Positions 8,043 to 53,967 are shown, counted from the first letter of the stretch. The stretch is DNA of 64,000 bases from a virus (IMGVR_UViG_3300025941_000018:11296-75295); one strand, 5' to 3'. The notes: generated by a model not told the origin, from the letters alone. A program made the numbers and translations.

Positions 8043-8353
8043 TACAACTCCAAAACGACACCAAGATCCGCTTCGTAAACGCCGTCGATGCGCTGCTTAC
8101 CCATGCCCGCGAGTGTGAAGCTTGCACCGAATACATGCAGACCGGAGAGGGCGACCTTTGCGACTGGGCCAAAATCAGCCTTGCTCACGAGATGGCTTTC
8201 GCCGACATGAAGCCGATCATCGACGAGAACTTCGTCTTACTCCCCGACGCGGCGACAGGCCCCTGCCCGCCCGCATCGTTGTCAGAGAGCGTCCTACCAT
8301 CCGCGGTGACAACCCTCGCCGAGAACCCACACGGGCACCTCGACTACGAGTAA
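8039..8353 (+). CDS. Hypothetical protein; 3' end overlaps giant ORF antisense
   Basis: ATGA-coupled; H...CxxC...C motif. Confidence 0.55.
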   Translation: MIQLQNDTKIRFVNAVDALLTHARECEACTEYMQTGEGDLCDWAKISLAHEMAFADMKPIIDENFVLLPDAATGPCPPASLSESVLPSAVTTLAENPHGHLDYE

Positions 8354-27536: not shown

Positions 27537-27764
27537 TTATTCGATTAAAATGGGTTCTCCATCCTCGGTCAGAATTTCCTCACCGTCTTCGGTAAGAATC
27601 GCGTCGGGATCGACATCGCCTTCATCAGACCCGCCGCCAGCCGCGCCGGTCCATCCAGTTGGAGGACTTTGCGACTCTCCGCCCGAATGACGAGCACACT
27701 CATGGGCGGGGTCTGGATGCCGCAAAGAGGGCACATAGTTGATCCCATTACCGTCGCCGTTCAT
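27537..27764 (-). CDS. HPDPA-family small protein with ILTEDG repeats
   Basis: YVPSLRHPDPAHEC..HSGGE; ILTEDGE x2; own promoter TTGCCG-17-TAATGT 6 nt before ATG. Confidence 0.75.
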   Translation of the reverse strand: MNGDGNGINYVPSLRHPDPAHECARHSGGESQSPPTGWTGAAGGGSDEGDVDPDAILTEDGEEILTEDGEPILIE

Positions 27765-32880: not shown

Positions 32881-34833
32881 TTAGACCAAAGAACTCAGCG
32901 CAGTGAATGCAACCGAGAGTCCGATTAGTAGCCAGCCTAATCCGGCGTAAAGGTTACTATAAGATGGGTTCAAACTGCGCCCTGAAGTTGAAGGCACCAC
33001 GTCTGCGATCCCCAGAATCGCCAGCGAATTTGCGGGGCATTCCACAATGGCCGTTTTTGTGACGCTAGTAAGCGTGATCTCCTGCGTCACATTCTCCATC
33101 GTGCAAGCAAATGTCGGGTCGAGCCTTGCGAGGTTTTCGAGTTCGCCGAGCGTGCGATTCTTCCGGTTGCTGTCGATCATGCCGGGATAGATCGTGCCGC
33201 CTTTAGGTCCAGGCTGGCCGATGTCGAGCACCAGCATCATACGACCTTGCGAACTGATATTCTCCGTCGAGAACGCGTTGAACCAGTCGTCGAAGTATTC
33301 GTGCGTGATGATGTTGATCGTCACACCCTGCGGGAACTTCGGCTGGAAGCTGGTCCAGTGGAAGCCGAGTTCGTTCTTGCCGGTCTCGATGTTGAGCCGA
33401 ACGATGTCGCCGTATTCGAGCTTCATGTAGTTCACAAAAGCGGTTTCGAACAGCGCGGCCATGCGCGAGTCCGTGTAAACGTCGATGGAGTCCGAGTTGC
33501 GGCCCTGGCTCTTGCGAGCACGCATGATGTTGTAAATCTCGTCGAAGAACTCGTAGAGATTGAGCGCGTTGTTTTGCAGGTCGCGAACACGGTCGCAGGC
33601 TCGTAACTGCTCGATGACGCCGATTTGATACGCCTCGTAGGCGACCAGCTTGCCGCCGGTGCCGGGGTCGATCTGCGAGCCGGTAACGGTCAGGATCTGG
33701 CGCAGGGATTGCCAGAGCGCCATCGTCTGGTTCGAGGACACAGCCTTACCCCAGAAGAACGCATTGACCTGCTCATTCTGGAACTGCATTTCATCCTGGC
33801 GATTGCGTTCGGCCATCGGGAGGTCCCCGAGTTGACGCCAGGCTTCGTTGGACTCCATCAGGCGGGCGAACACTTTCTTATATTCCGAATCCACGCAGCG
33901 GGAGCGGCGGACGGTTTCGATCCAGAACGGAATGCGTTTGCGAGGGTCGAGCGTTGGCCGGTTATGGCACCAGCTTTCGAAGTCGTTCGCAAATGCGCCG
34001 GTCTTGATCAGCACGCCCGAAGTAGGCGCGGTGTCGAAGGGAGTCGCGCTGCCAGAGTTTTGGCTGGTGATCAGCACGTCAACGTAGGACGAGTCAGCGG
34101 CGGCCGCCGATGCCAATACTTTCCACTGGCCTTGAGTGCCGACACCACTGCCGGCGCGGCCAAAGATTTGCACGCGATCGCGGTCAACGAACCAGTTGGC
34201 ATCGAGGTCAACTCCGTAGCGGCTGACAACTCGGACGACGCGGTCGCCAGCGGCGCCCAATGCCTTCTGTGCGGTCGTTAGCGGCCCGGTAACCAAGGCG
34301 GTGTACGCGGAATTCGCCTGACCTTGAGTGATGGCCCAGAAATCGACGTTGATGACGCTGTCCTGCCGAGCGAGCACGAATGGCTGCAACAGCGAAGGCC
34401 CGCGGTCGAGCTTGGTCGTGTTGATGAGCGACTTCATGTTGCGCGCACTGGACATGATCCAGTCATACACGCCATTGGTCTTCACGCCGCACGCCTGCAT
34501 TTCAAACGCGGTTCTCCACCAGGCATCCATATCGGCGTATAAGCCACCGGGACGGAATAGGGTGTCGAGGTCAGCGGGCGTCAGGTGGGCGACCGTAGCG
34601 CGAGTCACGGTGCCGCAGGTATCGTAGTTGTTTCCAACCACGACTTGGCACGGGGTACTCTTGAAGCGCGTGGCGAGTGCGGTAACAGCCATCGTGACGC
34701 CTTTGACGGGCGTCAGCAGCTTGGCGAGGAATAAGCCGGCAACTCCCCAAGCGGGATTGTCGAGCGTGAAAGCGGCTGCGGCGAGAACCAGCAGCGCGCT
34801 GAGGATAAGTAGCGGTCGTAATGTTCGTTTCAT
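32881..34833 (-). CDS. Major capsid protein (putative), with hydrophobic N- and C-terminal segments
   Basis: Follows portal and scaffold, followed by strong terminator; spine-helix-like E...NAFFWG then GVIEQL pattern. Confidence 0.72.
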   Translation of the reverse strand: MKRTLRPLLILSALLVLAAAAFTLDNPAWGVAGLFLAKLLTPVKGVTMAVTALATRFKSTPCQVVVGNNYDTCGTVTRATVAHLTPADLDTLFRPGGLYADMDAWWRTAFEMQACGVKTNGVYDWIMSSARNMKSLINTTKLDRGPSLLQPFVLARQDSVINVDFWAITQGQANSAYTALVTGPLTTAQKALGAAGDRVVRVVSRYGVDLDANWFVDRDRVQIFGRAGSGVGTQGQWKVLASAAAADSSYVDVLITSQNSGSATPFDTAPTSGVLIKTGAFANDFESWCHNRPTLDPRKRIPFWIETVRRSRCVDSEYKKVFARLMESNEAWRQLGDLPMAERNRQDEMQFQNEQVNAFFWGKAVSSNQTMALWQSLRQILTVTGSQIDPGTGGKLVAYEAYQIGVIEQLRACDRVRDLQNNALNLYEFFDEIYNIMRARKSQGRNSDSIDVYTDSRMAALFETAFVNYMKLEYGDIVRLNIETGKNELGFHWTSFQPKFPQGVTINIITHEYFDDWFNAFSTENISSQGRMMLVLDIGQPGPKGGTIYPGMIDSNRKNRTLGELENLARLDPTFACTMENVTQEITLTSVTKTAIVECPANSLAILGIADVVPSTSGRSLNPSYSNLYAGLGWLLIGLSVAFTALSSLV

Positions 34834-36720: not shown

Positions 36721-36968
36721 GCGCTTGTTTTAGCAACTAAGTCAGCCAGCTTTTTCTCAGCCTCGACGGGGTCCATTCTAGCCCACGGTCGGTCTTCAAT
36801 TACGGCAAGGGCCTCGCAGGGGCTAAGCCCGTGGCGTTCCTCTAATCGGCGCAGTGTTTGGCTGTGGTTAAGCTGGGCTTGACGCTCATGTCCTGCTATC
36901 AGCGACCACGGAATAGAACGCAGGACTTGCTTGTCGTGACCTTTCTGGATTGGAAAGTCGCCGATCAT
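36717..36968 (-). CDS. Conserved phage hypothetical protein
   Basis: IPW...HE.QA..NH.QTL.RL.ER.GLS..EA. Confidence 0.7.
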   Translation of the reverse strand: MIGDFPIQKGHDKQVLRSIPWSLIAGHERQAQLNHSQTLRRLEERHGLSPCEALAVIEDRPWARMDPVEAEKKLADLVAKTSA

Positions 36969-40025: not shown

Positions 40026-40257
40026 ACCCATCGAAGAAGCCTCTGGCCCTATCGAAGCCCCGCAACTTTCCAAGCGCGTCACGCCTTTTGGCCGGGTCGC
40101 GATGCTCGGTGATGGGCCTCACATGCCACCCGAACTCGCCATCGGCCAGCGGGTCCATGTCGATGTTGACCGTGGCCACGTCGCCGTCGCTCACGAAGGC
40201 CGCCCGCATCGCATCGTCTCCGTGCTCGACGTGCAACTGATCTTCGCCGATGCCTAA
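39994..40257 (+). CDS. GroES/Cpn10-like co-chaperonin
   Basis: LGNRILIEP...G.I..P...GRV..LGDG...IGQRV; 87 aa. Confidence 0.75.
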   Translation: MKLLGNRILIEPIEEASGPIEAPQLSKRVTPFGRVAMLGDGPHMPPELAIGQRVHVDVDRGHVAVAHEGRPHRIVSVLDVQLIFADA

Positions 40258-41809
40258 CGACGCCGATGGTAATTGGTATCCCGACTTGTTCGATAAGCAG
40301 TTGGAAGTTCTAAATTCCCAGGCGCGCGCCCTTCTTGTTAGCGGCCCACGCCTGAGTGGCAAAACTCGAGGTACCCTTCACCGTATCGTTCGCCATCTCT
40401 GGGAAACTCCAGATGCCCGTGTGGCGATGTTCTCGCGCACGGTCAAAAACTCCAAAGAAGGCGGCACTTGGTCCCTGCTGCACGATGTCGTTCTAAAGGA
40501 GTGGATCGACGCAAAAATCGGCTTGCGATACACGACCCTGAGTGCCGAGAAGCGGCCCGGTTTCAAGCTCGACAGCCTCAGCCGCACCCTTTACTTCCGC
40601 ATCCGCAATGTCCATGGCGGCGAGTCCACCTGCATGTTGTTCTCACTCGACCATGACCCGGACATCGAGGACAAGCTGAAGGAGATGGAGTTTTCCATGA
40701 TTTATTTCTCCGAGCTTTCTAAATTCCACGACCGAAAGATCCTCGGGGTGTCGCTGCTTTCGCTTCGCATGTCCCATATTCCTTACGAAAGCCACATGTG
40801 GATTGCTGATACCAACCCAGCCGACGAAGGCGAGTTGTCGTGGATCTATCGAGTGTTCTACGTGGAACGTGTCCAAGATTACGCTGAGTATGTTGTCTGC
40901 CAAAAGAAACTCGGCTTACCGGTACTTGAAGAACGGTTGTTCCTGGCACAGCAACGCGATCTCGCGCTCATTGAGATTAAGCCCGGCGAAAACCCCAGGT
41001 TGGACCCGAGGCAACTCGACGAACTCAAGTCCCAGAACGCCTACGATGCCGGGTTGTGGGCTAAGTACGTCGAAGGCAAGTGGATTTACGGCGAGGGCGA
41101 TGCCTCAATGCACTTCAGGGCTTATTTCAAGCGCAACCTGCACATCGTCGGGGACTGCACGTCGCCTAATGAAGAAGACTGGACCTACGCGAACCCATCA
41201 CCCGGAGCCTTCGAATTAGTGCTCGGCCTGGACATCGGCGATGTAAACCATGCGGGCGTTATCCTTAACCGGGATGTCATTAACGGTCGCTCACACTTCA
41301 CCCTTATTGACGAACTGGTTTACCTCAAAAAGGAAATCGCGGTCACCACTTTCACCGAGGATTTCATGGAGTTAATTGAGGCCCACGAGAAAGCGGCCGG
41401 GCGGCAGTATAATCTCGACCGGGCCTGGTCGGACAGCAACTCCATCGAAAAGTACAGCGCGGTGGCCGCTACGTTTCCCTACCTGCAAGTCTATGCAGCG
41501 TCGGGCAATCGCATATTTCTCCGCGCGCTGCCCAAAGCCCAGTCCAAGGGCGGAGTGCGGCAGCGAGTGTCATTGGTGAAAATGCTGCTGCACACTGGCC
41601 GGCTAAAAGTCTCCGCTCATTGCCATTTCGCCATCGCCATGTTTGAGGGTCTTAAAAAGGGGAAGGTGGATTATATCCCGACAGAGGACCCGATGAAGCA
41701 CATTTTTGACGCGCTCAGTTATGCGCTCTTTATGGAATGTGCCGAAGAACTCGAAGAGATGCCAGAATCCGGCGGGAGATCAACCGGGATGATTGTGCAT
41801 GTCCGTTAG
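40250..41809 (+). CDS. terL: Terminase large subunit
   Basis: Q motif, Walker A SGPRLSGKT, ADTNP coupling motif, ENP.L, G.W, nuclease LGLDIG and HIFDALSY. Confidence 0.92.
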   Translation: MPNDADGNWYPDLFDKQLEVLNSQARALLVSGPRLSGKTRGTLHRIVRHLWETPDARVAMFSRTVKNSKEGGTWSLLHDVVLKEWIDAKIGLRYTTLSAEKRPGFKLDSLSRTLYFRIRNVHGGESTCMLFSLDHDPDIEDKLKEMEFSMIYFSELSKFHDRKILGVSLLSLRMSHIPYESHMWIADTNPADEGELSWIYRVFYVERVQDYAEYVVCQKKLGLPVLEERLFLAQQRDLALIEIKPGENPRLDPRQLDELKSQNAYDAGLWAKYVEGKWIYGEGDASMHFRAYFKRNLHIVGDCTSPNEEDWTYANPSPGAFELVLGLDIGDVNHAGVILNRDVINGRSHFTLIDELVYLKKEIAVTTFTEDFMELIEAHEKAAGRQYNLDRAWSDSNSIEKYSAVAATFPYLQVYAASGNRIFLRALPKAQSKGGVRQRVSLVKMLLHTGRLKVSAHCHFAIAMFEGLKKGKVDYIPTEDPMKHIFDALSYALFMECAEELEEMPESGGRSTGMIVHVR

Positions 41810-42173: not shown

Positions 42174-42479
42174 TTAGGCGGCGAGAGCTTTAGGCAATGG
42201 CTTCCTGCGGGTCAGATGATGAAGGCGGCACTGCAATCCAGTTGTTATCACCCCACAGTTTGGATGAGAGCAGCGATTGTAACGACTTGGGGTCTTAAAG
42301 AATTGCTTCACCTGACTAAGCTCGGCGGCTAGTCGGTCATCGCCTGCGCGTCTGGCCGCGATGATTTTGTATTTGACCAAGCGAGCTAAACCCGCTCGGT
42401 TTGCTTCTCCCGAAAAGCTGACTCGTTGTTTATGGGGAAGGCCAAGCAGAGACTTGACCCGCATATAGCTGATTTTCAT
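42174..42479 (-). CDS. Hypothetical basic protein with C/H motif
   Basis: Coupled ORF; CSHPNC..C..HH. Confidence 0.5.
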   Translation of the reverse strand: MKISYMRVKSLLGLPHKQRVSFSGEANRAGLARLVKYKIIAARRAGDDRLAAELSQVKQFFKTPSRYNRCSHPNCGVITTGLQCRLHHLTRRKPLPKALAA

Positions 42480-43180
42480 TCCCGAATCTGATAGGGGTCC
42501 ACGTTGTTGGTACGAACAAAGCCAACCCGATAGTAGCCCTGACTCCCCGGAGCATTGGTCACTACCACACTTGCCGCCGGCAACTTAGCCCAGTTGGTCG
42601 TGTCGTGGGTGATTTCCACTGTTACTGGGTCGTAAGTAATGATCGGCTGCGGCCATTGGAACGGCATTGAAAGGTCGCTGTTGGTGCCCGGTGCCAGTGT
42701 CTCGGCTTGAATCCAGTATTTTGAGCCATACAGCAAGTGTGGAATGGCATTGAAATTGGTTGGTGTGAAAAAGTTGGTGCTCACGTCCACTGCTCGGCCT
42801 TGGGCTATTGGCGTGACGAAGATTTGATAGCCACTCGCGCCGGGCACCGGGTCGAACTTTAGATACTTCAACGAATACGTCGCTGGATTGGTCGCGCCAA
42901 CAACCACCACATCGGGCGGCATTGGTGGAAGTTCTATCGCGGCAAGCCTTGCCGCCTGTGGGTCGGGTAGGTGATGCGCAGTTTCTTCCTGAGTGTAGAT
43001 CGGCGGATTCCACTGCACCGGCTCAGAGGTCACGGAATGAAACTGCGCTGGTGGCGTGAACGGCTGCCCCATCGCAACCACTTGGAGCATGACAGGTGCC
43101 GCGATGAAGGCTGGGTTAAATGGAACGATGCGCGGGATAGCCCTTATGCTCTCCCACAAGATGGCTGCAAGCGTAATCAT
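42476..43180 (-). CDS. Putative membrane/exported protein with FN3-like segment
   Basis: Hydrophobic N-terminus; FDPVPGASGYQI...L..G..Y. Confidence 0.5.
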   Translation of the reverse strand: MITLAAILWESIRAIPRIVPFNPAFIAAPVMLQVVAMGQPFTPPAQFHSVTSEPVQWNPPIYTQEETAHHLPDPQAARLAAIELPPMPPDVVVVGATNPATYSLKYLKFDPVPGASGYQIFVTPIAQGRAVDVSTNFFTPTNFNAIPHLLYGSKYWIQAETLAPGTNSDLSMPFQWPQPIITYDPVTVEITHDTTNWAKLPAASVVVTNAPGSQGYYRVGFVRTNNVDPYQIRE

Positions 43181-43491
43181 TTGGCCCCTTTCACCGCCCC
43201 AGCGACCGCTCCTTGCACGATGAGGCCAATCAGTTGATCCAAATTTGAACTTGTCACAGAGGCATCATAAGCGCCGATGGTTGATCCACTCGGGTAAGCC
43301 CAGACATTGCTTCCGGTCCCCGCTTGACCCGTGGTGTTCCTGAATTTCGTCAGCGACGATGTGCTGTCAAAGAAAGTGCAAACCCTTACAATGGTGTTTT
43401 CAGAACCGTCCGGCTTCTTGGTGGTGCTTGAGCGGAGATAAGCGCAGCCGCACAGCAGGGCCAGTGGTAGGATTAGGGCGAGTCTTTTCAT
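43177..43491 (-). CDS. Lipoprotein
   Basis: MKRLALILPLALLCG-C lipobox. Confidence 0.75.
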   Translation of the reverse strand: MKRLALILPLALLCGCAYLRSSTTKKPDGSENTIVRVCTFFDSTSSLTKFRNTTGQAGTGSNVWAYPSGSTIGAYDASVTSSNLDQLIGLIVQGAVAGAVKGAK

Positions 43492-43493
43492 AA

Positions 43494-43715
43494 TCAGTAG
43501 TCGTCTGCGGTGTAAGGGTAGGATTGTCGTTTCGTATTTGCCTGGTTCAGCCCAAGGCGTCGAATTAAGCTGGATTCCGTGCGCTTGACTTGCTTGACGG
43601 TGGTTCGAAGCTCGCGGGCGGTTTGCTCCGGGGGTGCGCCGACAAACATTGCTTGCAGAATTCTCGCCTGTCGCTCATCGGAAGTTAGATGTTTTCGGGC
43701 GCTCAATCTGTACAA
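43494..43715 (-). CDS. Small LuxR-like HTH protein
   Basis: LT...ARIL....G.....ARELRTT.K.VK. Confidence 0.45.
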   Translation of the reverse strand: MYRLSARKHLTSDERQARILQAMFVGAPPEQTARELRTTVKQVKRTESSLIRRLGLNQANTKRQSYPYTADDY

Positions 43716-43721
43716 GCAATA

Positions 43722-43741
43722 CGCCCGTCCGAAGACGGGCG
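43722..43741 (-). terminator. UUCG-capped hairpin, possible terminator
   Basis: CGCCCGTC-TTCG-GACGGGCG on minus strand, weak U tract. Confidence 0.5.
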
Positions 43742-43766
43742 CAAGCTTTGAATTGAACCGATTGGC

Positions 43767-44249
43767 TTACGGCTTGGCGGTTGGCGCGCCGAGCGTCAAT
43801 CCCAAGTTTGCAGCATTAGCTCCGGTCGTGTGGACCAGGATCGTGTCCTGAACATCCACAACTCCAGATCCGAGATCGGCATCGCCATCGACCAAATAGG
43901 TCGTATCGTCCGGGGAGTCGGGCGTTACCAGAGTCGCGGACATGCCATCAGCGGCGGGTGTTACGGTGCCAGCGCCGGATACCACAGACCAGACGGGAAT
44001 GCCGTCGAGTTTTGCAGGCTTTCCGGTGGCAGTTACGGGCTTTAGTGTGGCAACAACTTGCTGCTCATTTGTCAGTGTGATTTCTGCGGGCATATGATTT
44101 TGACCTTTCTTATTGAAGGGAAGCCCGAAACCGAAATTGAGCCGGGCGGCCCGTCGTTTTTTGTTCTTCTTACACTTCGCCTCAAGTTGTGAGGCAAATT
44201 CTTTAATCGCTTTACGCATGGCCTTTTTCATTCGTTCAATCCAGTCCAT
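43767..44249 (-). CDS. Small Ig-like beta protein (start may be 44093)
   Basis: G.PA.LDG.P.W...ADG.SA...DADLG.GV. Confidence 0.6.
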   Translation of the reverse strand: MDWIERMKKAMRKAIKEFASQLEAKCKKNKKRRAARLNFGFGLPFNKKGQNHMPAEITLTNEQQVVATLKPVTATGKPAKLDGIPVWSVVSGAGTVTPAADGMSATLVTPDSPDDTTYLVDGDADLGSGVVDVQDTILVHTTGANAANLGLTLGAPTAKP

Positions 44250-44272
44250 TCGGAGAGAGCCAGAATCTAGCC

Positions 44273-44515
44273 CTAATCATGGCGCTTGTCACGCGGGGGA
44301 TTGTCCTTACCTTTCTTGCCGTTGGGTGTTACCTCCCCGCGCATAAGTTCACCAGCCGGAAAGATTGCCAGCGGACGATATTCCCGCCCCGCCTCGCCCG
44401 CCCAATGGATTACCGCGACGGCGACCTGTCCATCGCGCTCACTTTCCCAAACGACGCCAGCCCCACATTGCGATGCGCCCTTGAGTCGGAATATGATTTT
44501 TTCACCGCGAATCAT
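44273..44515 (-). CDS. Hypothetical protein
   Basis: TAATG-coupled to upstream small membrane gene. Confidence 0.5.
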   Translation of the reverse strand: MIRGEKIIFRLKGASQCGAGVVWESERDGQVAVAVIHWAGEAGREYRPLAIFPAGELMRGEVTPNGKKGKDNPPRDKRHD

Positions 44516-44688
44516 TACGAGTGAACTGGCTGGCCGAACACTTTCCAACCCAGCAATAAAAGCAGGATGAAAAGCAGCAGTGTGCCGCCGAGTGGTTTGA
44601 ACGGGCTTCCGGTCGCTGGCCAGTTTGACCAGAGGCCGAACACCAGCCATAGAAGCATTAAAACCCAATAGATTAATTGAAAACTCAT
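44515..44688 (-). CDS. 57-aa two-TM membrane protein (holin-like; not in ORF track)
   Basis: MSFQLIYWVLMLLWLVFGLW...GGTLLLFILLLLLGWKVFG. Confidence 0.75.
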   Translation of the reverse strand: MSFQLIYWVLMLLWLVFGLWSNWPATGSPFKPLGGTLLLFILLLLLGWKVFGQPVHS

Positions 44689-44752
44689 AATTTGCCTTTC
44701 GTTGTTGTGTGCAAGCCTAAGCCCTAATCGCCTTTTGGCAATGGGGCCATTT

Positions 44753-45100
44753 TCATATCAGCTTACTCTTGATCTCAGCAACCATGCGCTTAGTTTCCTG
44801 GGCGGCTGCTTCCATTCGGACAACCGCGTCCAGCGTCTCCTCTGCCTTTCGGATGCGGGTATGATAATTGTCTAGCCGATCCTCAATGCGGGTTAGCGTG
44901 ACGGCATTTTCCTGCCTGACTATCACCGCAGACTTGTCGTTCTCCTTCATTTCCCGTTCCAACTCGGCGAGTTGTTTGCTCATGGATTCTTGGTTGAATT
45001 GAGAGCGAAACCAGGTAGCCGCTCCAGCGAGCAGGATGCCGATCCAAGTAACCACGTTCCCAATCGTGATTTCCAAAAAGTTCTTCGGGTCTTGTGCCAT
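44753..45100 (-). CDS. Single-TM coiled-coil protein (holin/spanin-like)
   Basis: ITIGNVVTWIGILLAGAATW then coiled coil. Confidence 0.6.
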   Translation of the reverse strand: MAQDPKNFLEITIGNVVTWIGILLAGAATWFRSQFNQESMSKQLAELEREMKENDKSAVIVRQENAVTLTRIEDRLDNYHTRIRKAEETLDAVVRMEAAAQETKRMVAEIKSKLI

Positions 45101-45135
45101 GCGAGCGTCATGTTAATCACCGTGTTTGATTTGGG

Positions 45136-45453
45136 CTAAGGCTTTTTCTTAGAGAGAGCTTCATCGAGTTTATTCTGTGATGCGAGATGCGCCTTATATT
45201 CTTTCTCTGCTTGTACGGCTCGTTCCTGATAGGACTGATTCTCCGGGCTGCTGTCGGCAAGCTGCCGAAGCGCAACCGCGCCCACCCCAAGGGCAGCGCC
45301 CATTGCTTTGTTGCTCAGGGCGTGAATCGCAACTGTGTCGGTCTTCACGTCCTTAATGTCGTCGCCGTTTCGCCAGGATTTGATGAAGCTTCCCAACGCC
45401 AGAATGGTCGGCGCTATGGCAACGATTAGAGCGGTTTGAACGGCGTCGGTCAT
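45136..45453 (-). CDS. Single-TM membrane protein (holin-like)
   Basis: ALIVAIAPTILAL N-terminal TM. Confidence 0.6.
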   Translation of the reverse strand: MTDAVQTALIVAIAPTILALGSFIKSWRNGDDIKDVKTDTVAIHALSNKAMGAALGVGAVALRQLADSSPENQSYQERAVQAEKEYKAHLASQNKLDEALSKKKP

Positions 45454-47387
45454 TACCGCACCCTCCTTGCGCGAATCGATCCGTAGGCGGAAACGGTGCC
45501 TGCGCTGAAGGTCGCCTTGCCAATTAAATACACCGTAGTGGTCGCGCTCACATTGATTTGCTTAGCTGGAACCGTCAGTCCATCAGTAACAGATACGGCG
45601 GTGAACTGAGCGCCGGAATTGACTTCCGTTCCGTCGGTCGCAAGCGTGGCTGACGTGGTGCCAATTGACCCCGCCGAACCTGTGTAGGTCGCCGTGCCGC
45701 CTGCGAAGCTGATGTTGCCCGATACGTCCCAATCGCCTGCGGTGAGTGAGATGCTGGTGACGTTTGCTGCGGTCGCCGTCGTTAAGGAAACCGCACTTCC
45801 CGAGGCTACCAGCGATGAAATCACTTCGCCCACTATCCCCGAGGCGGCGCTGCTACCGGCGACGTAGCCGATGATGCCGTTGGAGAAACTTCCCGTGTTG
45901 GTGGCGATGACATTGCGAGCCAGCAAGTCTCGGTAATTGGCAGTTGTACCGTTATTAACTTCTACAATTCCAGAGTTTGCCGCATAAAGCCCCGCTTGAA
46001 CTGTCGAGAAAGAAGTGTCGTTGTAGAAAAGTACTTTTGTGTTCGGTAATCCTATACCGCCCGCAGTAAAACGGCCAGCAACACCACTTCCGGCTGCGAA
46101 CCAAAGTTGGCTCCCAAACGGGTTATACATACCCGTTCCGGGGTCAGCCCCAAATGCGAACCCAGGCCGTGACGTGCTTCCAATTTGAGCTAAGAAAATG
46201 CCGTTTGTGATCCTGGCTTCCAACCCCAAAGATCCATTGCTGATACTCAGGCTATCGTTCGTTGCAAAAATAAACCCCTTAGTCGCCGCATTCGTAACCG
46301 AAAACCCATTAGTAACCGTTGTTGATCCGAGTGTTACTGGCGCCCCAAAGCTAGTAGCCACGCTCTCTCCATTGGTAAGAATATTGCCTGGTGCCAGGAT
46401 ATTCGCAATGTTCGTCGCCGTGCTGCTCAGCTTGAGCGTGTTCGCGCTGAAGGTAAAGTCCGAGGACAAGTTGATGTTGCTCACCGTGTTGTCGCCTTCG
46501 AGTGCGAGGAGAGAGTTGACCACTGCGTTACTCAAGCTCAACTGATGCGCCGCATCGAGTGTGAAATTGTTGGACCCGCGCACAACGAAGGTGAAGGTCT
46601 GGGTGACGATGGTTCCGGGGCTCGCAATCGATGCTATGGTCAACACCCCGCCACTACTCGCGCCGGTATGCGTATGTTGCGCGCTCGTAAAATCCGAAAT
46701 GGCAGGCTGGTTCAATAACGGATTCGCCGCGAATACCGCCGCTCCGCTCCCTGTCTCATCCGTTAACGCCGTCGCCAATTGCCCCGAACTCAATGATAAC
46801 CTTGCCGGCGGCAATATCCCACTCGTCAGCTGCGAAGCATTCAGCGCTGTCAATCCAACTCCGATTCCTGCGATCTCCCCCAAGGAACTGATAGTGGCTA
46901 ATCCTCCAGCAAAACTGGCCAGCCCCGTCCCATTTCCATCTCCAAGGACAATGGCGCTGTTGTCCACCGACATGCTGCGCTTGTTGGTGGTGTAATTATC
47001 AAACACCGTTCCGGTAATGTGAAGGTCGTTGCCAGCGTTACCGTTGGTTACACCTCCAGAGAGCGCGTTGGTCTGGAAAAACGGGTAGGAAGATGTGATC
47101 CCGTTAGTTGCCGCCTGGGCTGCGGCCGCGGCTACATTTGTTACCAGTAATTTCGAAACATCGGCCGACACCGTGACAAGATGGCCGTTTGTAATCAGGA
47201 TCACGTTTGTTCCTGAACGAACAAAATAACCAGCCGATCCGACCAGCGCTACTCGATTGGTATTCACTAGAATGAATCCCCCATTCGTCCAAACGAAGTC
47301 ATTGGTCGAAAAAGACTGATAAGACGGGTTTGCCGCACGTCCACAAAGGCAGGACAGCAACAGTAGGACCGACAATAATTTCTTCAT
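45453..47387 (-). CDS. Fibre-like T/N/S/G-rich protein with Sec signal peptide
   Basis: MKKLLSVLLLLSCLCGRA; LTDETGSGAAVFA, P.F.F..D.GTGMY, G.VGE...SISLTAGDWDV...ARRVR fibre motifs. Confidence 0.75.
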   Translation of the reverse strand: MKKLLSVLLLLSCLCGRAANPSYQSFSTNDFVWTNGGFILVNTNRVALVGSAGYFVRSGTNVILITNGHLVTVSADVSKLLVTNVAAAAAQAATNGITSSYPFFQTNALSGGVTNGNAGNDLHITGTVFDNYTTNKRSMSVDNSAIVLGDGNGTGLASFAGGLATISSLGEIAGIGVGLTALNASQLTSGILPPARLSLSSGQLATALTDETGSGAAVFAANPLLNQPAISDFTSAQHTHTGASSGGVLTIASIASPGTIVTQTFTFVVRGSNNFTLDAAHQLSLSNAVVNSLLALEGDNTVSNINLSSDFTFSANTLKLSSTATNIANILAPGNILTNGESVATSFGAPVTLGSTTVTNGFSVTNAATKGFIFATNDSLSISNGSLGLEARITNGIFLAQIGSTSRPGFAFGADPGTGMYNPFGSQLWFAAGSGVAGRFTAGGIGLPNTKVLFYNDTSFSTVQAGLYAANSGIVEVNNGTTANYRDLLARNVIATNTGSFSNGIIGYVAGSSAASGIVGEVISSLVASGSAVSLTTATAANVTSISLTAGDWDVSGNISFAGGTATYTGSAGSIGTTSATLATDGTEVNSGAQFTAVSVTDGLTVPAKQINVSATTTVYLIGKATFSAGTVSAYGSIRARRVR

Positions 47388-48343
47388 AGGTAACCTCCAC
47401 CAAGAGCCACGCGCAAAGCCTGTACTCGGTCGGCGTGCTTTTGCACCTGCGCCGCGCTCATCCCCTGGGTCACGCCCAGGTAAGAATTGCGGCCGTCAAT
47501 CCAGCCGCTGATACTTCCAAGACTGTTTAGCGCAAAGGCTACGATCGGGTAAGTGGCAATCGTCGTTCCGGTCTGTGCCGAACTTCCAGAGATCACGCTT
47601 TTAATAGGTGTAATACTGCTGTTTTGCCGATAAAGAGTTAAGGCCCCGGAGCCCGAAGCCGCAGTCCGCATTCCTGCCGAATAACCTCGATACCCAAAGC
47701 TACCCACTGCTGAGTCAGAGTCCTGGACAAAATCAGTGTTCGCGTTCTGGAACCTCCAGCAATAAATCCCTTCGATGTTGCTGGCGTAGTAAAGGGCAAA
47801 ATGCGAACTGTCATTAACCCCGCCGACGCCAAAACTATAGCCATGCCCGGTGGTGTCCAACGTGTGGATGTAAGCCGCCAGTCCCGCATTGGTCGCGGTC
47901 ATCGGCGATGCGCTGCTGGTGATGATGCCCGTGTCGAGATACTTGCTGGTGCCATCACCCTTGAGCCCGTTAATCGTCAAGTCGCCGCCGACAAAGCTAT
48001 GGTTGGTCCACGGGTCGCTTCCGACCGAATGGAAAAATGGCGTAGTCGCCCCAATCAAACTGCTCGAGACTACGAGTATGTCGCTCAGTATCATTGAGTC
48101 GATGCCGTCCGTGACACAGCCACGGTAGTAGGCATCTGCCGCCAGCAGCTCGCCGGCAGTCGGGTAGGTTCCACCGTTGGCCACCACCCGCGCCGCCCAG
48201 GCCAGCGTAAATGAGGCCAATGGTCGCACATTACCCATCCACGGCTGGTCTCGAAACGTGTAGGCCTGCGCGCGCAGCAACTTCGGGATGAAGAGTGTGG
48301 GCACAAACAAAGCGCCGCGTTTTATAAAGGATCGGCGGTTCAT
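47384..48343 (-). CDS. Tat-signal protein with lectin/beta-sandwich-like body
   Basis: MNRRSFIK twin-arginine motif; GLKGDGTSKYLDTG; ends VQAL..ALG. Confidence 0.72.
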   Translation of the reverse strand: MNRRSFIKRGALFVPTLFIPKLLRAQAYTFRDQPWMGNVRPLASFTLAWAARVVANGGTYPTAGELLAADAYYRGCVTDGIDSMILSDILVVSSSLIGATTPFFHSVGSDPWTNHSFVGGDLTINGLKGDGTSKYLDTGIITSSASPMTATNAGLAAYIHTLDTTGHGYSFGVGGVNDSSHFALYYASNIEGIYCWRFQNANTDFVQDSDSAVGSFGYRGYSAGMRTAASGSGALTLYRQNSSITPIKSVISGSSAQTGTTIATYPIVAFALNSLGSISGWIDGRNSYLGVTQGMSAAQVQKHADRVQALRVALGGGYL

Positions 48344-48423
48344 GGTTGCATCACGAGAGCGACAGGGTTAAAGTGAAAACGCTCGCCCGGGCCTGTAACC
48401 CAAGCGAGCATCAAACTAACACG

Positions 48424-48999
48424 ATGCAAAAGATTACCGCTGAGTATCTTGCTGAGCAAGGACTTTCCGCAAACTTCCCCTCTTACTTTTTTGAACGAGT
48501 TGAAATTACTGGAAGTTGTTGGTTTTGGACCGGCTCCCACAGGAAGAAGGGAGTGGCTTATGGAAACGTTTATCGAGGTCTTGGCCGATCTGGCAACAGT
48601 GGCACAATTCTCGCGCATCGAGCGTCCTGGCTCTTGCATTTTGGTCCGGTGCCGAATGGGCTTCAGGTCTGCCATGATTGTCCTGACGGCGATTGCCCCT
48701 ATTGCGTTAATCCAGGTCATCTTTGGCTTGGCACCATTACCGAGAACCTTCAGGACATGGCCAGAAAAGGAAGGCACTGGAGTCCTGTCGGTCGCTACAC
48801 TGGGCAGAAGAGCGCCAATGCGGCGTTCACCGATGCGCAAGCCGATAAGATCCGAACGGAGTATAAGCCGCGTCGAGTGACACTGGATTTCTTGGCGACC
48901 AGATACCAAGTTTCCAAGCAGGTAATCTACCGTATCGTTCATGCCAAGACTTACAACAACACTGGCGCTGCCGATGTGGGATCGTTCAAGCATAAGTGA
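48424..48999 (+). CDS. HNH endonuclease inserted antisense in fibre cluster
   Basis: CWFWTG..YG..AHRASW...VCH.C...CVNPGHL.LGT..EN..DM..KGR; C-terminal HTH; upstream TTGCAT-17-TAAAGT. Confidence 0.9.
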   Translation: MQKITAEYLAEQGLSANFPSYFFERVEITGSCWFWTGSHRKKGVAYGNVYRGLGRSGNSGTILAHRASWLLHFGPVPNGLQVCHDCPDGDCPYCVNPGHLWLGTITENLQDMARKGRHWSPVGRYTGQKSANAAFTDAQADKIRTEYKPRRVTLDFLATRYQVSKQVIYRIVHAKTYNNTGAADVGSFKHK

Positions 49000-50031
49000 T
49001 CACCAAATGGGAAGCGCGATGGCATTCGTCCACTTTTGGGCATGTTGGCTGAAGGTAATAGCGGTCAGGTTAGTACAAAACCAAGTGCCAACCTGATGCA
49101 CATTTGCTGGAGCGGTGATCGCGATTGCGACCGCTGTGCTGTTAGTTACGTAAAAAACTGTCGTTTGGTCCAAGGTCTTTGTCGTATCCACGCCGACTGG
49201 GGCCAGAACCGTAAACGCCGCATTGGTCGAGACCAGCGTGTAGCCTTTGGTGAAGTCTGGGGCGGTCGCCGTGGCACTCACGTTGGTTGTGTAATGCGCC
49301 TGCGTGGTCACCAATGGAACGCTCAGCGTGAGTGAATTGGTGGACAACAAAGCCATCCGCGTTTCTTCCGTCCCGTTGTCATCGCTGCTCTGCGTGAATT
49401 CCAGAAAGCGCTCTGCGTTGTTGGTGGTCCCTGGAACGATGCCGCGCAGCGATAGCATAAAGTCCTGCGCACCAGACCCGTTCCAAACACTGGTGTTGAA
49501 GTTGAACCGCTTGGTTGGTCGATTTGATCCATTGCTCGCGCTTCCATCTTTCTGAATTTTTACCGTGCCGCCGTTCGCGCCAGCAAACCCGAGCTGGATG
49601 ATACTGTTGTTTCCCTCTGACGTGAGCGAAATCGATTGAGCATCGAAAATCAACTTGCCCGCTGAGTCGCTCACAAACACTTTCGCCAAGCAGTTCACGC
49701 CATCCAGTGTGAACATAATTCCGCGGTTATTTTGGTCGGTCCAAAACAGCAGGTTCTCGCCACGAAAAACTTCAGTCATTACCCCCAGCGTAGCCGTGAG
49801 CCCTGAATCGAAGGCGCGACCGTTTCCAATAACAGTCGTTCCCAGAAACGTCGCGTTGGTTCCGAAGCCCGACTCCTTCGCGATGGCGTTTCCGCTAACG
49901 ACGTTGGTTGCCAGCGATTTGTTGATGTTGGTGAGCACTGTCCCACTGTTGGTTGTGCCAAACTGCAACCTAACCGGCTGAGCCGAGAGCAGCAGCGGCC
50001 ATAAAGCGATGAGTGCAAAAAGTTTCTTCAT
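49000..50031 (-). CDS. Fibre-like protein with Sec signal peptide
   Basis: MKKLFALIALWPLLLSA-QP; T/N-rich beta sequence. Confidence 0.7.
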   Translation of the reverse strand: MKKLFALIALWPLLLSAQPVRLQFGTTNSGTVLTNINKSLATNVVSGNAIAKESGFGTNATFLGTTVIGNGRAFDSGLTATLGVMTEVFRGENLLFWTDQNNRGIMFTLDGVNCLAKVFVSDSAGKLIFDAQSISLTSEGNNSIIQLGFAGANGGTVKIQKDGSASNGSNRPTKRFNFNTSVWNGSGAQDFMLSLRGIVPGTTNNAERFLEFTQSSDDNGTEETRMALLSTNSLTLSVPLVTTQAHYTTNVSATATAPDFTKGYTLVSTNAAFTVLAPVGVDTTKTLDQTTVFYVTNSTAVAIAITAPANVHQVGTWFCTNLTAITFSQHAQKWTNAIALPIW

Positions 50032-50035
50032 AAAA

Positions 50036-50284
50036 TTAAGGTCCGATGATTTGATCCCAGGCCGTGTTGGTCAGTCCCGTCGATTGCCAGACGCTGTGGG
50101 GCACGTTCTGGTCGGTGTAAAGTTGGCCGATTGACGTCGGGGTCACTACGCCTACCGGAGAACCCGTTCCGCTGAGATTTCCAGTGCCGGTGCCATCGCT
50201 GCCGCCGTTGTCTTCGCAGCAGGTGGTCATATTCGCAGGGTCGGGATGATGTATTCCGGTCGTTGGGTCGTAAGAATCACTCAT
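50036..50284 (-). CDS. HPDPA-family small protein with GSPxGVV module
   Basis: IHHPDPAN; GTGSPVGVVTP..IGQLYTD...W...W. Confidence 0.7.
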   Translation of the reverse strand: MSDSYDPTTGIHHPDPANMTTCCEDNGGSDGTGTGNLSGTGSPVGVVTPTSIGQLYTDQNVPHSVWQSTGLTNTAWDQIIGP

Positions 50285-50290
50285 AGGTTT

Positions 50291-50707
50291 TTATATCAGT
50301 GTGATGGTGAACTCGCTGGAATAGTCGCTGACCCGAGAACCCCCGAGGGTCCATGCGGCTTCAGCTGCAAATTGGTCTCCCAGCCCTGCGTCGGAAATTA
50401 ACGTAATTGCCCCAGGTGACCCCGGAACATCAGGCACTGAAAAATCGCCACTGGGAAAAGGTCTCCAGCGAAAACTTATCCCGTCCGCGCCGGCGGGAGC
50501 GCTGGTAAGCCAATTGGCAAGCACGTCTGCCCCAAATTGTTGCAGTGTCCAGTCAGTTCCGTGGACCGGCGCAGGTAGTAGCACTGAATCCGATTCCGGT
50601 GTGATGCCAGCCCATCCCGTCGGCGGACTCTGAACTTCTCCGCCGCTGTGAGATTGGCACTCATGCGCGGGGTCTGGATGGCGTAACGATGGAACATATC
50701 CGCTCAT
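50291..50707 (-). CDS. HPDPA-family protein with FN3-like domain
   Basis: YVPSLRHPDPAHECQSHSGGE.QSPPTGW; W..W...SDYS. Confidence 0.72.
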   Translation of the reverse strand: MSGYVPSLRHPDPAHECQSHSGGEVQSPPTGWAGITPESDSVLLPAPVHGTDWTLQQFGADVLANWLTSAPAGADGISFRWRPFPSGDFSVPDVPGSPGAITLISDAGLGDQFAAEAAWTLGGSRVSDYSSEFTITLI

Positions 50708-50709
50708 AA

Positions 50710-50868
50710 TCAATCAGGAGGATTGTCATTAATCGGCGCTTCTGGATCGCCATTCCAGTCCGATGGATGAGACTGCGGTTCGCCTCCACTATGGGACGTA
50801 CATTCATGCGCTGGGTCTGGATGCTTCAACCCGGGCACGTAAAGGAAGCCATTGCCGTCGCCGTTCAT
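50710..50868 (-). CDS. HPDPA-family 52-aa peptide (not in ORF track)
   Basis: MNGDGNGFLYVPGLKHPDPAHECTSHSGGEPQSHPSDW; promoter TTGACC-17-TAGGGT 6 nt before ATG. Confidence 0.75.
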   Translation of the reverse strand: MNGDGNGFLYVPGLKHPDPAHECTSHSGGEPQSHPSDWNGDPEAPINDNPPD

Positions 50869-51323: not shown

Positions 51324-51563
51324 TTACTGGTCTAAGAAATCGACTTCTTCGTGCTCCAATATCCCGATAACCGGGTTCGCTGGTGAAAACGAGTGCGTCC
51401 AGAAGGGGTGCTTTACGAGCATCACAATTTCAGGAGCGGCTGGATCCGGATGCAGTCCAGTAACGATGGCAGCGCCTCCTGGGTATCCACCGATTGCTTC
51501 GGTCATTATCACGCGGCCAATCGCCGAACGTCCGTAGATGTTTACGAACGATCCGGCGTTCAC
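51324..51563 (-). CDS. Hypothetical protein
   Basis: GTGA-coupled to YqaJ stop. Confidence 0.5.
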   Translation of the reverse strand: MNAGSFVNIYGRSAIGRVIMTEAIGGYPGGAAIVTGLHPDPAAPEIVMLVKHPFWTHSFSPANPVIGILEHEEVDFLDQ

Positions 51564-53341: not shown

Positions 53342-53967
53342 ACGCTTGCCCATCTTCGAACAGGTGCCGTTAGCGTCTTTTCCACTATCCACCCGCTTCT
53401 CATTCTTGAATTTACGATCTGACGCGGGAGATTGAGATGCCTTTCCCACTGAGCGGGGGTCATCGTAAGCCCAGAGAAGGTGATTTTTTTGGAATTGCGG
53501 TGGTTGTTGGCCTGGGTAATCGCGTCTGCCCAGCGACAATTTTTAGGCTCATAGTTGCCATCAGGATCAATCCGATCTATGGAGTGTTTCGGCGTTGGCT
53601 TTGATCCCATGTCTGCGTAGAATTGAGCGAAGTTATCCCACGCGCCACAGATCGTTACGCAGCTTCCTCCGTACCTGTGAAACTCGTTATTATTGGGATC
53701 TTTGCAGCGACCTCGCATTTTCATCCAACTTCGCCATTCTGGACTTCTGTGCATTCCGTGCCGCCTGGCGCGGTTTCCAATCATCTCGTTAGCGAGGCAT
53801 CCGCACGACTGTATTTTGCCTGCGCAAAGATGGCCAACTCTAACCTTTGTGGTTTTTCCACAATCGCACAAACAGAGCCAGTACGTATCGTAGCCACGTC
53901 TCTCGAAATCAGCGGTAACGGCAAGCCTTCCAAACCTCTGCCCAGCCAAATTTTTGAATTTGTGCAT
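53338..53967 (-). CDS. HNH endonuclease
   Basis: GQRFGRL..WLCLCDCG..SCGC..SIDRID.DGNYEP.NCRWA. Confidence 0.9.
   Translation of the reverse strand: MHKFKNLAGQRFGRLAVTADFERRGYDTYWLCLCDCGKTTKVRVGHLCAGKIQSCGCLANEMIGNRARRHGMHRSPEWRSWMKMRGRCKDPNNNEFHRYGGSCVTICGAWDNFAQFYADMGSKPTPKHSIDRIDPDGNYEPKNCRWADAITQANNHRNSKKITFSGLTMTPAQWERHLNLPRQIVNSRMRSGWIVEKTLTAPVRRWASV

Follow-up and report, generated by a model that had tools for sequence, protein, structure and literature searches.

Why would a tailed phage encode fibre-like and lectin-like proteins that carry the signals of bacterial protein export? Tailed phages are built in the cytoplasm, and we know of no tailed phage that exports parts of its virion and of no tailed-phage fibre with an export signal; our literature search for a publication on exported fibre or lectin proteins of tailed phages found none either. 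The question is raised by a 75-kb IMG/VR record from rhizosphere, a temperate phage according to its integrase gene, of which a window of 64,000 nucleotides was analysed here. All the open reading frames of the original prediction were confirmed at their coordinates on the minus strand. Three adjacent genes stand at the centre of the block and encode a 343-aa protein with a Sec leader (A-type, 49000..50031), a 319-aa ConA-like lectin with a Tat-type leader (B-type, 47384..48343) and a 644-aa fibre with a Sec leader (C-type, 45453..47387), and they are followed by small membrane proteins and a lipoprotein.

The leaders were called by a crude heuristic filter (n-region charge, uncharged core, small residues at -3 and -1) together with reading of the sequence. 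It passes 18 of the 510 ORFs in six frames (3.5%) and 3.2% of N-termini after shuffling, and among 106 likely genes it leaves five strong leaders, four of them inside this 7.5-kb block. Both Sec-type leaders are canonical in charge (net +2), core (about 7-15 residues being typical) and cleavage site and stand far over that background: the leader of the 644-aa protein (residues 1-18, nt 47334-47387) consists of MKK, a 12-residue uncharged hydrophobic core and the small-residue site GRA/A, and that of the 343-aa protein (residues 1-17, nt 49981-50031) of MKK, a 14-residue core and LSA/Q. The start of the 644-aa gene is backed by a GGAGG Shine-Dalgarno sequence 9 nt upstream and by an ATG overlapping the stop of the upstream gene (ATGA coupling). 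A Cys in position 13 of its leader fails the lipoprotein spacing rule, and so signal peptidase I is more likely than signal peptidase II to process this leader. The 104-aa protein encoded at 43177..43491 has a fitting lipobox (L-L-C-G-C after a 16-residue core). The twin-arginine leader of the lectin (residues 1-27, nt 48263-48343) is present as described, with N-R-R-S-F-I-K at residues 2-8, which is of the Tat motif type S/T-R-R-x-F-L-K, a moderately hydrophobic stretch of 11 residues, a c-region with basic residues, and A-Q-A; related loci (G1, L016 and P0019) have this motif type too. Its h-region is nevertheless short, 11 uncharged residues compared with the usual at least 12-13, and the Tat-signal models of Pfam and NCBIfam gave no match to this protein at E 0.1 or 1.

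Could such hydrophobic N-termini be uncleaved docking or oligomerisation peptides of cytoplasmic fibres, or mis-called starts? The lack of a Tat HMM match for leaders judged by heuristic agrees with this, as does the Tat-like N-terminal module, which is unusually conserved between phages (50-83% identity), as in fibre attachment modules: in its first 60 aa the lectin shares 50% identity with the leader module that another lectin has in G1, and 83% with L016 over 18 aa. The leaders nevertheless have a canonical n-region charge, h-region length and -3/-1 sites, their starts are supported by Shine-Dalgarno sequences or coupling, and they behave as exchangeable parts. Lectin homologues have a Tat leader, a Sec leader or none, and one mature motif, [YF][TS][FL][RA]D (in the window the conserved peptide (Q)A-Y-T-F-R-D-Q), begins where cleavage is predicted, following Tat leaders (window, G1, L016, P0019) or unrelated Sec leaders (L018, P0016, P0022), and forms the extreme N-terminus of the leaderless P0017 and P0018, the latter coming after a leaderless tail fibre. 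The family of the 343-aa protein, defined by a domain that is always at the extreme C-terminus, comprises at least 339 protein clusters with proteins of up to 1513 aa; a leader was flagged in 104 of its 139 full-length representatives, and many of the remainder are visibly leaders too. Across more than 100 clusters these Sec leaders have a common physicochemical pattern and no common sequence, and the AxA/Q site is present in 33% of cases against 11% in later windows. A reading of the N-termini as something other than signals appears to us very improbable. Because the filter flags just 3.5% of ORFs, unrelated leaders precede one mature motif, leaderless homologues begin with that motif and leaders are widespread in the 343-type family, the leaders are not due to chance, and export of all three proteins through Sec and Tat is, as far as sequence can indicate, well supported and highly probable. 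Leaders are carried by at least 75% of the 343-type full-length representatives examined.

The bodies behind the leaders carry fibre-type modules, as was originally claimed. Residues 495-644 of the 644-aa protein (nt 45456-45905), whose body also carries phage-fibre motifs, match residues 390-534 of the tail fiber gp47 (PDB 8vbx_R, E 7e-14) of the podophage PhiM1, a protein with a solved tip structure (PDB 8vbx, PMC11440229). This tip also matches phrog_11393 'tail fiber protein' and the tail fibres of cultured podophages of the KP34-like type, with 35-41% identity to those annotated in phages of Dickeya, Klebsiella and Enterobacter, and recurs with 72% identity behind another Sec leader in the relative G2. 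The C-terminal domain of the 343-aa protein (residues 228-343, nt 49003-49350) was modelled by AF2 as a beta-sandwich (pLDDT 87) whose best fold matches are all phage virion parts, namely the Pa223 capsid spike (Z 7.5, Foldseek 3e-4), the XD domains of CBA120 TSP4 (residues 79-180 of TSP4, Z 6.5) and the KP1 baseplate (Z 6.1), with T4 gp9/gp10 also among them, these Z values (6-7.5) being middling. The T4 gp10-like or TSP4 XD beta-sandwich serves to dock other fibre proteins, and we propose a docking-type role for this domain as well. It is predicted to be of a soluble type, with no Pfam match to the YadA-type C-terminal anchor of trimeric autotransporter adhesins; a Por secretion tail of T9SS was found neither by Pfam or NCBIfam nor among the fold matches. 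For the lectin, Pfam gave no match and our own AF2 model was poor (pLDDT 50); its ESM Atlas structure (pLDDT 0.74) aligns at TM 0.86 with a viral cluster, 24% of whose members carry Laminin_G_3, and by this model its core (residues ~40-319) is a ConA/LamG-like lectin fold. Such lectin cores occur inside the tail gene clusters of L004 and L005.

In their architecture, a short N-terminal module, a variable body and a C-terminal tip, encoded in multi-gene sets as in anchor-branch systems, these proteins resemble podophage fibres and branched complexes of the PhiM1 gp47 and T7 gp17 type. Unlike those, they have a predicted cleavable Sec or Tat leader in place of the virion-anchor N-domain, and their genes lie outside the structural operon. 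No virion-attachment N-terminal domain was found in the 644-aa protein, where the match is confined to residues 495-644 and no fibre-anchor family matched.

Signal peptides on fibre-like proteins are also a feature of the MAT (mosaic adhesive trimer) fibres of Bdellovibrio bacteriovorus, which combine them with a phage-tail-fibre-like body and exchangeable C-terminal tips and act outside the cytoplasm (Caulton et al. 2024, PMC10769870). MAT fibres are encoded by chromosomal genes of the predator, all of them have a beta-rich N-domain of ~130 aa, and in many the C-terminus is an S74 chaperone-protease (PMC10769870), whereas here the genes are phage-borne, only short N-terminal peptides are conserved, a Tat-exported lectin is included and no S74 domain was matched by Pfam in the exported proteins. 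Another comparable protein is the tailspike-like WceF of Pantoea stewartii (PDB 6TGF), a beta-helix hydrolase with a Tat signal, encoded by a host gene of an exopolysaccharide operon, which acts on envelope polysaccharide after export (PMC7949094); our Tat protein is instead a ConA-like lectin in a phage genome. By analogy with both, the fibres and the lectin might be lysogenic-conversion cargo that the lysogen displays or releases, as adhesins or matrix modifiers, to the benefit of the host cell, with no role in the phage cycle. The integrase and the MAT-like architecture agree with such a role, and so does the plasticity of the region: an HNH homing endonuclease (48346..48999, plus strand; Pfam HNH_3 1.6e-6, phrog_1872 5.7e-24) is inserted between the 343-aa and 319-aa genes, L018 has an HNH-like ORF between genes of these two types, and gene content differs in G2. 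Yet the genes are translationally coupled inside a long same-strand block and have no promoter or terminator pattern of their own above chance, the conserved MAT-like anchor domain of 130 aa is absent, and the family members that were looked at come from metagenome contigs of phage size (at most 55 kb), with none on a named bacterial genome. The same unit, moreover, occupies the tail-fibre slot of G1, a podovirus in which no integrase was seen. We consider conversion cargo unlikely. The combination of leaders with fibre and lectin modules, conserved and modular across many uncultured phages, is no ordinary host-type cargo.

The unit of a 343-type protein, a lectin and a Sec fibre or beta-helix was found repeatedly in unrelated phage backbones. 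In the complete 45-kb genome of G1 only one fibre gene is leaderless, a stub of 164 aa that covers no more than the first ~130 residues of the tail-fibre families (650-1080 aa) it matches. The stub is ATGA-coupled to the first leader-bearing gene, and every distal fibre, beta-helix and lectin gene has a leader. By its gene content, the leader-bearing genes of G1 are the sole candidates for distal fibre parts, which fits the part of the original prediction that saw exported appendages attached later. Two phages with a 72%-identical major structural protein have at the same position a leaderless fibre in one and a leader-bearing fibre in the other. The tail module of the window is without the tip-bearing fibre and the lectin, both of which come after a homologous 758-aa protein in L003 and L004. 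Since leader-bearing and leaderless lectins have one mature N-terminal motif, the same kind of partner is suggested for both.

From the observed leader features, their conservation and interchangeability, the homology between the bodies and fibre parts of virions, and a gene unit that is conserved, we infer, with a probability of roughly 40%, that the three proteins are distal receptor-binding parts, exported as pre-proteins and joining the particles at lysis. Host Sec (343-aa and 644-aa proteins) and Tat (319-aa protein) would move the pre-proteins to the periplasm late in infection, where signal peptidase I would cut the leaders and expose short conserved N-terminal peptides, often Gln-first (Q-P-V-R-L-Q-F-G-T-T-N is predicted for the mature 343-aa protein), as docking ends. 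The proteins may then fold and associate outside the cytoplasm, possibly binding envelope glycans as well before lysis, and would meet the cytoplasm-built particle only once the inner membrane is breached by the membrane proteins of the genes directly downstream. Reliance on lysis alone for this meeting seems inefficient, and the short h-region of the Tat leader with no HMM match weakens the proposal too.

The surroundings of the three genes offer a competing explanation. The genes stand apart from the structural operon, with recombination genes on one side and lysis-like genes on the other, in a temperate phage which has a tail-collar fibre of its own, and no sequence similarity was found between the exported proteins and any structural-module protein of the window. 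Related clusters, in which beta-helix members have Sec leaders, also encode exported proteins that look typical of the secreted or envelope kind and not of virions (a Beta_helix enzyme starting right behind its leader, an OMP-like protein and lipoproteins of 517-568 aa). The three small membrane proteins of the original prediction are all present on the minus strand: a 105-aa protein (45136..45453) with two hydrophobic segments, a charged C-terminus, a strong AGGAGG Shine-Dalgarno sequence and weak similarity to a 155-aa ORF of L016, which may be holin-like; a 115-aa protein (44753..45100) with one N-terminal TM segment and a coiled coil (phrog_1009, 7.6e-6; Pfam XhlA weak at 0.004, below the cut-off), which may be i-spanin- or XhlA-like; and a 57-aa protein (44515..44688) with two TM segments. 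Further along the same strand are a leaderless 160-aa ORF (43767..44249) that probably starts at an internal Met, giving 108 aa, and looks Ig-like by eye, with a terminator-like hairpin of 10 pairs behind it (43720-43743) from a hairpin scan that as a whole was not above chance; the 104-aa lipoprotein, a member of a small phage lipoprotein family with similar members of 96-100 aa at the corresponding place in L016 and L017; and a 234-aa protein (42476..43180) with a hydrophobic N-terminal segment (a possible signal-anchor), an FN3-like body and H-H-L-P-D-P-Q, which did not pass the leader filter and had no family match in Pfam, PHROG or NCBIfam. The membrane proteins and the lipoprotein have a shape suitable for a holin/spanin cassette, though no muralytic or endolysin domain was found within 41.8-45.5 kb by Pfam, PHROG or NCBIfam, and they resemble lysis or exit genes more than they do appendage parts.

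Phages commonly encode exported exclusion proteins, and T5 Llp, lambda Lom/Bor and signal-peptide and SAR endolysins use host Sec or lipoprotein routes, often near lysis genes, as the proteins of this block appear to do. Those are small lipoproteins, outer-membrane proteins and muralytic enzymes, unlike the receptor-binding modules of fibre and lectin type found here. There is, we estimate, a little over one chance in three that the exported proteins never enter the virion and are fibre modules put to a new use in the periplasm or envelope of the cell, infected or lysogenic, and co-expressed with lysis genes. Glycan binding there would mask receptors or remodel them (superinfection exclusion, shielding of progeny from debris) or aid exit through outer polysaccharide. 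WceF and the MAT fibres are precedents of phage-type trimers acting after export. This explanation, however, leaves the complete podovirus G1 with an anchor stub and no distal receptor-binding protein, and Sec and Tat alone take proteins no further than the periplasm of a diderm cell. Nothing in the structural module of the window corresponds to the exported binding domains, which gives no support to a masking of the phage's own receptor; an investment in very long proteins (up to 1513 aa), across hundreds of clusters, would be unusual for accessory genes, and the motif common to lectins with and without leaders points to one type of partner. Display on the lysogen surface, which the original prediction also allowed, or action in the envelope without joining the virion is about as likely as an exported appendage.

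Other elements which had been drawn into the same system fared less well. The 650-aa capsid candidate (32881..34833) has an internal Met at residue 48 that gives a plausible soluble N-terminus, and its signal-like hydrophobic start is probably an upstream in-frame extension, which makes a capsid link doubtful. Three small leaderless ORFs with the HPDPA motif, put forward in the original prediction as adaptors (82, 140 and 52 aa; 50036..50868, minus strand), lie directly upstream of the 343-aa gene, and a fourth member in the tail module (27537..27764) is 87% identical over 31 aa to the one at 50291..50713; the motif was absent from all related loci and is confined to this genome.

Virion-type parts with export leaders imply maturation outside the cytoplasm, the compartment of tailed-phage assembly. 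We tentatively suggest, at less than even odds, that a large group of soil tailed phages sends receptor-binding fibres, lectins and depolymerase-like spikes through Sec and Tat, to mature in the periplasm and to be added to adaptor-bearing particles when the envelope is breached. The arrangement is common to many uncultured phages, and we know of no description of such an export route for tailed phages; if our reading is true, it would constitute a two-compartment assembly pathway new for Caudoviricetes.

Tailed-phage assembly is taught as a wholly cytoplasmic process, and when a 'tail fibre' gene has a signal peptide, annotation pipelines put it down to error or to host cargo. The literature searched contained no account of tailed-phage fibres with export signals, and one preprint spells out the usual assumption for the P22 tailspike. 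The original prediction was that fibre-like genes of the window carry Sec, Tat and lipobox leaders, and this is confirmed by our analysis, since the leader features exceed the background of the filter applied and the starts are supported by a Shine-Dalgarno sequence or by coupling.

The genes in question lie downstream of the recombination genes as a minus-strand block. It opens with three small HPDPA ORFs (50036-50868), followed by the 343-aa gene with a Sec-type leader (49000-50031), an HNH endonuclease with Pfam and PHROG matches that runs opposite to its neighbours (48346-48999, plus strand), the 319-aa gene with a Tat-type leader (47384-48343) and the 644-aa gene with a Sec-type leader (45453-47387). 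Three small membrane proteins of 105, 115 and 57 aa come next, then an Ig-like ORF without a leader and an HTH protein of 73 aa, all assigned from sequence, a 104-aa lipoprotein with a lipobox (43177-43491) and, as the last member, a 234-aa protein whose N-terminal segment is hydrophobic (42476-43180).

Both Sec-type leaders, those of the 644-aa and 343-aa proteins, open with MKK, continue with 12-14 uncharged core residues and close with a small-residue cleavage site. The 319-aa protein begins with N-R-R-S-F-I-K, a moderately hydrophobic stretch (the h-region of this Tat-type leader is short, 11 residues), a basic c-region and A-Q-A, and none of the Tat-signal HMMs of Pfam and NCBIfam matched it. 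The filter considers n-region charge, h-region and the -3/-1 rule, and as a crude heuristic, not a trained signal-peptide predictor, it passes 3.5% of the ORFs in all six frames of the genome, and 3.2% when N-termini are shuffled. Among 106 likely genes it gave five strong leaders, four of them inside the exported block. A GGAGG Shine-Dalgarno precedes the 644-aa start, which overlaps the upstream stop as ATGA, and the remaining starts in the block come a few bases after the preceding stop. The 'leader' of the capsid candidate (32881-34833, minus strand) is probably an upstream extension produced by ORF calling, and an internal Met at residue 48 gives a normal soluble start. The last 20 residues of this 650-aa protein are hydrophobic; in G2, a distantly related phage with a complete 75,285-bp record and portal and terminase 46% identical, there is only a 75-aa fragment of it, matching residues 280-330 and lying beside an HNH-like ORF, and by sequence the gene may be split there. 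Promoter and terminator scans of the window gave nothing above shuffled expectation; a 16-pair hairpin (48378-48412, minus strand) lies just upstream of the 319-aa start, within the 5' end of the HNH gene on the opposite strand. Two cysteines are present in the mature 319-aa protein, two in the mature 343-aa protein and none in the mature 644-aa protein; paired cysteines are a weak lead. A glycosylation idea was dropped, N-x-S/T sequons being not enriched beyond composition (z 0.1-1.8).

Behind these leaders are bodies of the kind that phages put on their particles. Residues 495-644 of the 644-aa protein match the tail fibre gp47 of the Pectobacterium podophage PhiM1 (PDB 8vbx, E 7e-14), whose structure has been solved (PMC11440229), as well as phrog_11393 'tail fiber protein' and annotated tail fibres of Dickeya, Klebsiella, Enterobacter and Xanthomonas phages, and the rest of the body carries usual fibre motifs common to metagenomic fibres with classical leaderless N-termini (P0004-P0006). 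The 319-aa protein has no Pfam or PHROG annotation; its ESM Atlas model reaches TM 0.86 to a viral ConA-like/Laminin_G_3 cluster, its AF2 model, with a pLDDT of 50, is too poor to rely on, and its leaderless homologues sit within tail-fibre gene clusters (loci L004 and L005). With its relatives the 343-aa protein has in common only the last ~115 residues, which AF2 with a 67-row alignment folds into a confident beta-sandwich (pLDDT 87). The best fold matches of this C-domain are phage virion parts only, first the tip of the Pa223 capsid spike (VIA Z 7.5, Foldseek E 3e-4), then the CBA120 TSP4 XD domains (Z 6.5), a KP1 baseplate protein, an Acinetobacter tailspike and T4 gp9/gp10. Because the Z values are middling we label it cautiously, from its model, as a probable virion-type domain, possibly a docking domain. 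It is not a membrane anchor; YadA-anchor and T9SS tail models of Pfam and NCBIfam did not match the 343-aa protein. A suggested homology to the C-terminus of the leaderless L005 fibre was dropped (profile E 4.6), and the predicted complex of three C-domains with the mature lectin scored 0.03 and is counted neither for nor against.

It could be supposed that such N-termini export nothing and are docking peptides without any signal, and the homologues bear on this. A profile of the C-domain, run at E <= 1e-3 against 1.84 billion proteins, found at least 339 representative clusters of 86-1513 aa, with the domain always at the extreme C-terminus. The leaders of this family have no sequence in common, and an [AVSTIL]-x-[AGS]|Q site is present in 33% of family N-termini vs 11% of later windows. 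In the lectin family the mature motif [YF]-[TS]-[FL]-[RA]-D starts at the predicted cleavage site, usually after Gln, and stands behind Tat-type leaders in the window, in the related phage G1, in locus L016 and in P0019, behind unrelated Sec-type leaders in the 254-aa protein of locus L018, in P0016 and in P0022, and at the very N-terminus of the leaderless P0017 and P0018, the latter encoded directly after a leaderless tail fibre. P0019, with its Tat leader, and P0021, with a CxxC + FN3 N-terminus, have nearly identical cores, and therefore the N-terminal module has been swapped between close relatives. The first 60 residues of the window lectin, i.e. the leader and ~33 mature residues, are 50% identical to a different lectin of G1 and over 18 residues 83% identical to that of L016, with bodies behind this module in which BLAST finds no relationship. 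The 644-aa tip recurs in G2 at 72% identity behind a different Sec leader. Of the homologues, which the original prediction proposed to compare, the lectins P0017 and P0018 and three of the closest tip homologues, with classical fibre N-termini, lack leaders; three others of the closest tip homologues have Sec leaders, and 104 of the 139 listed C-domain family representatives starting with Met pass the filter, many of the other 35 being truncated or visibly leaders that it missed. Since the leaders are conserved in kind, interchangeable and placed ahead of the same mature motif, it is very probable, judging by sequence, that the leader-bearing proteins are really exported, and for the same reasons docking peptides without a signal are the least likely of the readings considered.

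The proteins also travel together. A C-domain gene followed by a lectin with the conserved N-terminal module is found in the window, in G1 (IMGVR_UViG_3300046642_000365), in L016 and in L018. In the first three of these a third Sec protein is next, in the window the fibre with the gp47 tip and in G1 and L016 a 425-aa right-handed beta-helix (Pfam Beta_helix 2.4e-7; the G1 and L016 proteins are 44% identical), and in all of them small TM proteins and lipoproteins come after the unit. The HNH gene lies between the C-domain gene and the lectin gene both in the window and in L018 (1515-2333), and because it holds the same junction in two different phages, its position suggests a homing site. The backbones differ: our phage and G2, both of 75 kb, have a giant ORF, the 45-kb G1 is a T7-like podovirus, and loci L015 and L005 represent a third type. 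Downstream of its exported fibre genes G1 also has a ~205-aa Sec protein with an aromatic last residue, outer-membrane-barrel-like by eye (L006:12836-13453), and a 517-aa lipoprotein (L006:13633-15186), the beginning of which resembles a 568-aa lipoprotein of L016; neither G1 protein has family matches.

Do these proteins become parts of virions? G1 is complete (CheckV) and encodes tail tubular A and B, portal and three internal virion proteins. In its tail-fibre slot there is a 164-aa ORF matching only the first ~130 positions of tail-protein/tail-fibre families of 650-1080 aa (phrog_1640 2.2e-15, phrog_13893, phrog_6518), this ORF ends in an ATGA overlap with the start codon of a gene for a Sec-leader protein, and all further fibre-, beta-helix- and lectin-type genes have leaders; these genes are therefore the distal receptor-binding proteins, or G1 has none. 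A scan with this anchor stub found only itself. Loci L005 and L015 share a 72%-identical structural protein of ~495 aa and a CxxC protein, after which L005 encodes a leaderless 599-aa fibre and L015 a leader-bearing 596-aa fibre-like protein. In the window, the tail module has a collar fibre and a 758-aa protein and is without the tip-bearing fibre and lectin that follow the homologue of the 758-aa protein in loci L003 and L004; enzyme-like genes come there instead. We prefer to think, at a probability of about 0.4, that the three proteins are exported receptor-binding parts joining the particles once the inner membrane is breached. Late in infection they would pass through Sec and Tat into the periplasm, conserved N-terminal docking peptides would be exposed by signal peptidase, and the proteins would fold there and perhaps associate; adaptor-bearing particles would be met only when membrane proteins encoded next in the operon breach the inner membrane.

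Almost as likely is that the exported proteins never enter virions and act on envelope glycans, by receptor masking or remodelling, phage exclusion or help in exit, resembling in this the Tat-exported WceF of Pantoea (PMC7949094), which the architecture recalls and which is a cell-owned gene. Several observations argue against virion membership: the block stands outside the structural operon of a temperate phage, related clusters contain proteins with the look of plain secreted or envelope ones, exported proteins of the window have no intragenomic similarity to those of the structural module, and the literature searched offers no precedent for exported tailed-phage parts. An unlikely alternative is surface display benefiting the lysogen, as with the MAT fibres of Bdellovibrio (PMC10769870); the architecture is equal, but MAT fibres are products of cell-owned genes with a defining N-domain and S74, both of which are absent here. 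The modules are the ones that phage tail fibres have, but the N-terminal anchor is missing here and membership in that family fails.

The phage itself is known from a linear IMG/VR virus record of 75,295 bp, 93% complete (CheckV), of which the window covers bases 11296-75295. A tyrosine integrase lies at 401-1324 (Pfam 1.5e-23), and DnaB, RecT and a YqaJ exonuclease are also encoded in the window, which has no tRNAs. The large terminase (40250-41809, plus strand) has no relative in 50,697 cultured-phage records, and neither the 319-aa nor the 343-aa protein has a match there. The long structural block on the minus strand includes the portal (36965-39481), the tail-collar fibre (26243-26983), an Ig-domain protein, the 758-aa virion protein and, at its end, the giant 3243-aa ORF (8217-17948), which over 976 aa shares 32% identity with a 3415-aa ORF of G2. 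In the YqaJ-type recombination exonuclease (51560-53539, minus strand) the Pfam YqaJ match (2.9e-10) is at the C-terminus, and the reading frame is broken by an intein-like insert that has a LAGLIDADG domain (LAGLIDADG_3 8.9e-6); the G2 counterpart of this exonuclease, 235 aa long, has no interruption. The sequencing runs listed are of DNA only, no RNA run among them containing the stretch, and the sole run with the whole stretch is a rhizosphere metagenome, perhaps the one from which the record came; a search of genome contigs gave one match, a 6-kb phage-like contig binned to an Anaerolineales MAG.

The HPDPA peptides, small leaderless ORFs, were considered as a general partner of the exported module and rejected, the motif being missing at all related loci. 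Their tail-module member (27537-27764) and a member upstream of the exported genes share 87% identity over 31 aa, a possible fifth ORF at ~51.3-51.5 kb (51324-51506) reads G-L-H-P-D-P-A-A, and the 234-aa protein contains H-H-L-P-D-P-Q. The motif G-x-P-x-G .. Y-x-D .. W .. G .. W ends both a metallophosphatase-like 589-aa protein of the structural module (29292-31061, minus strand) and the 82-aa HPDPA protein (50036-50284, minus strand), and in G2 the exported fibre has upstream of it a 141-aa ORF with a similar ending.

Phage-borne fibre and lectin modules that are exported by Sec/Tat and form a conserved unit of three genes have, to judge from the literature that could be searched, not been described before. 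Conserved and interchangeable export signals on true virion-type modules occur here in hundreds of soil-phage protein clusters, and the family is a source of natural Sec and Tat leaders already paired with trimeric fibre cargo. Should the exported proteins never enter virions, they would constitute a large undescribed class of phage envelope effectors made from receptor-binding modules and serving exclusion, exit or matrix remodelling. If virions are armed in the way we prefer, it would be a categorically new assembly route, with a bearing on host-range prediction, on the engineering of receptor-binding proteins and on how free and particle-bound depolymerases are to be interpreted.
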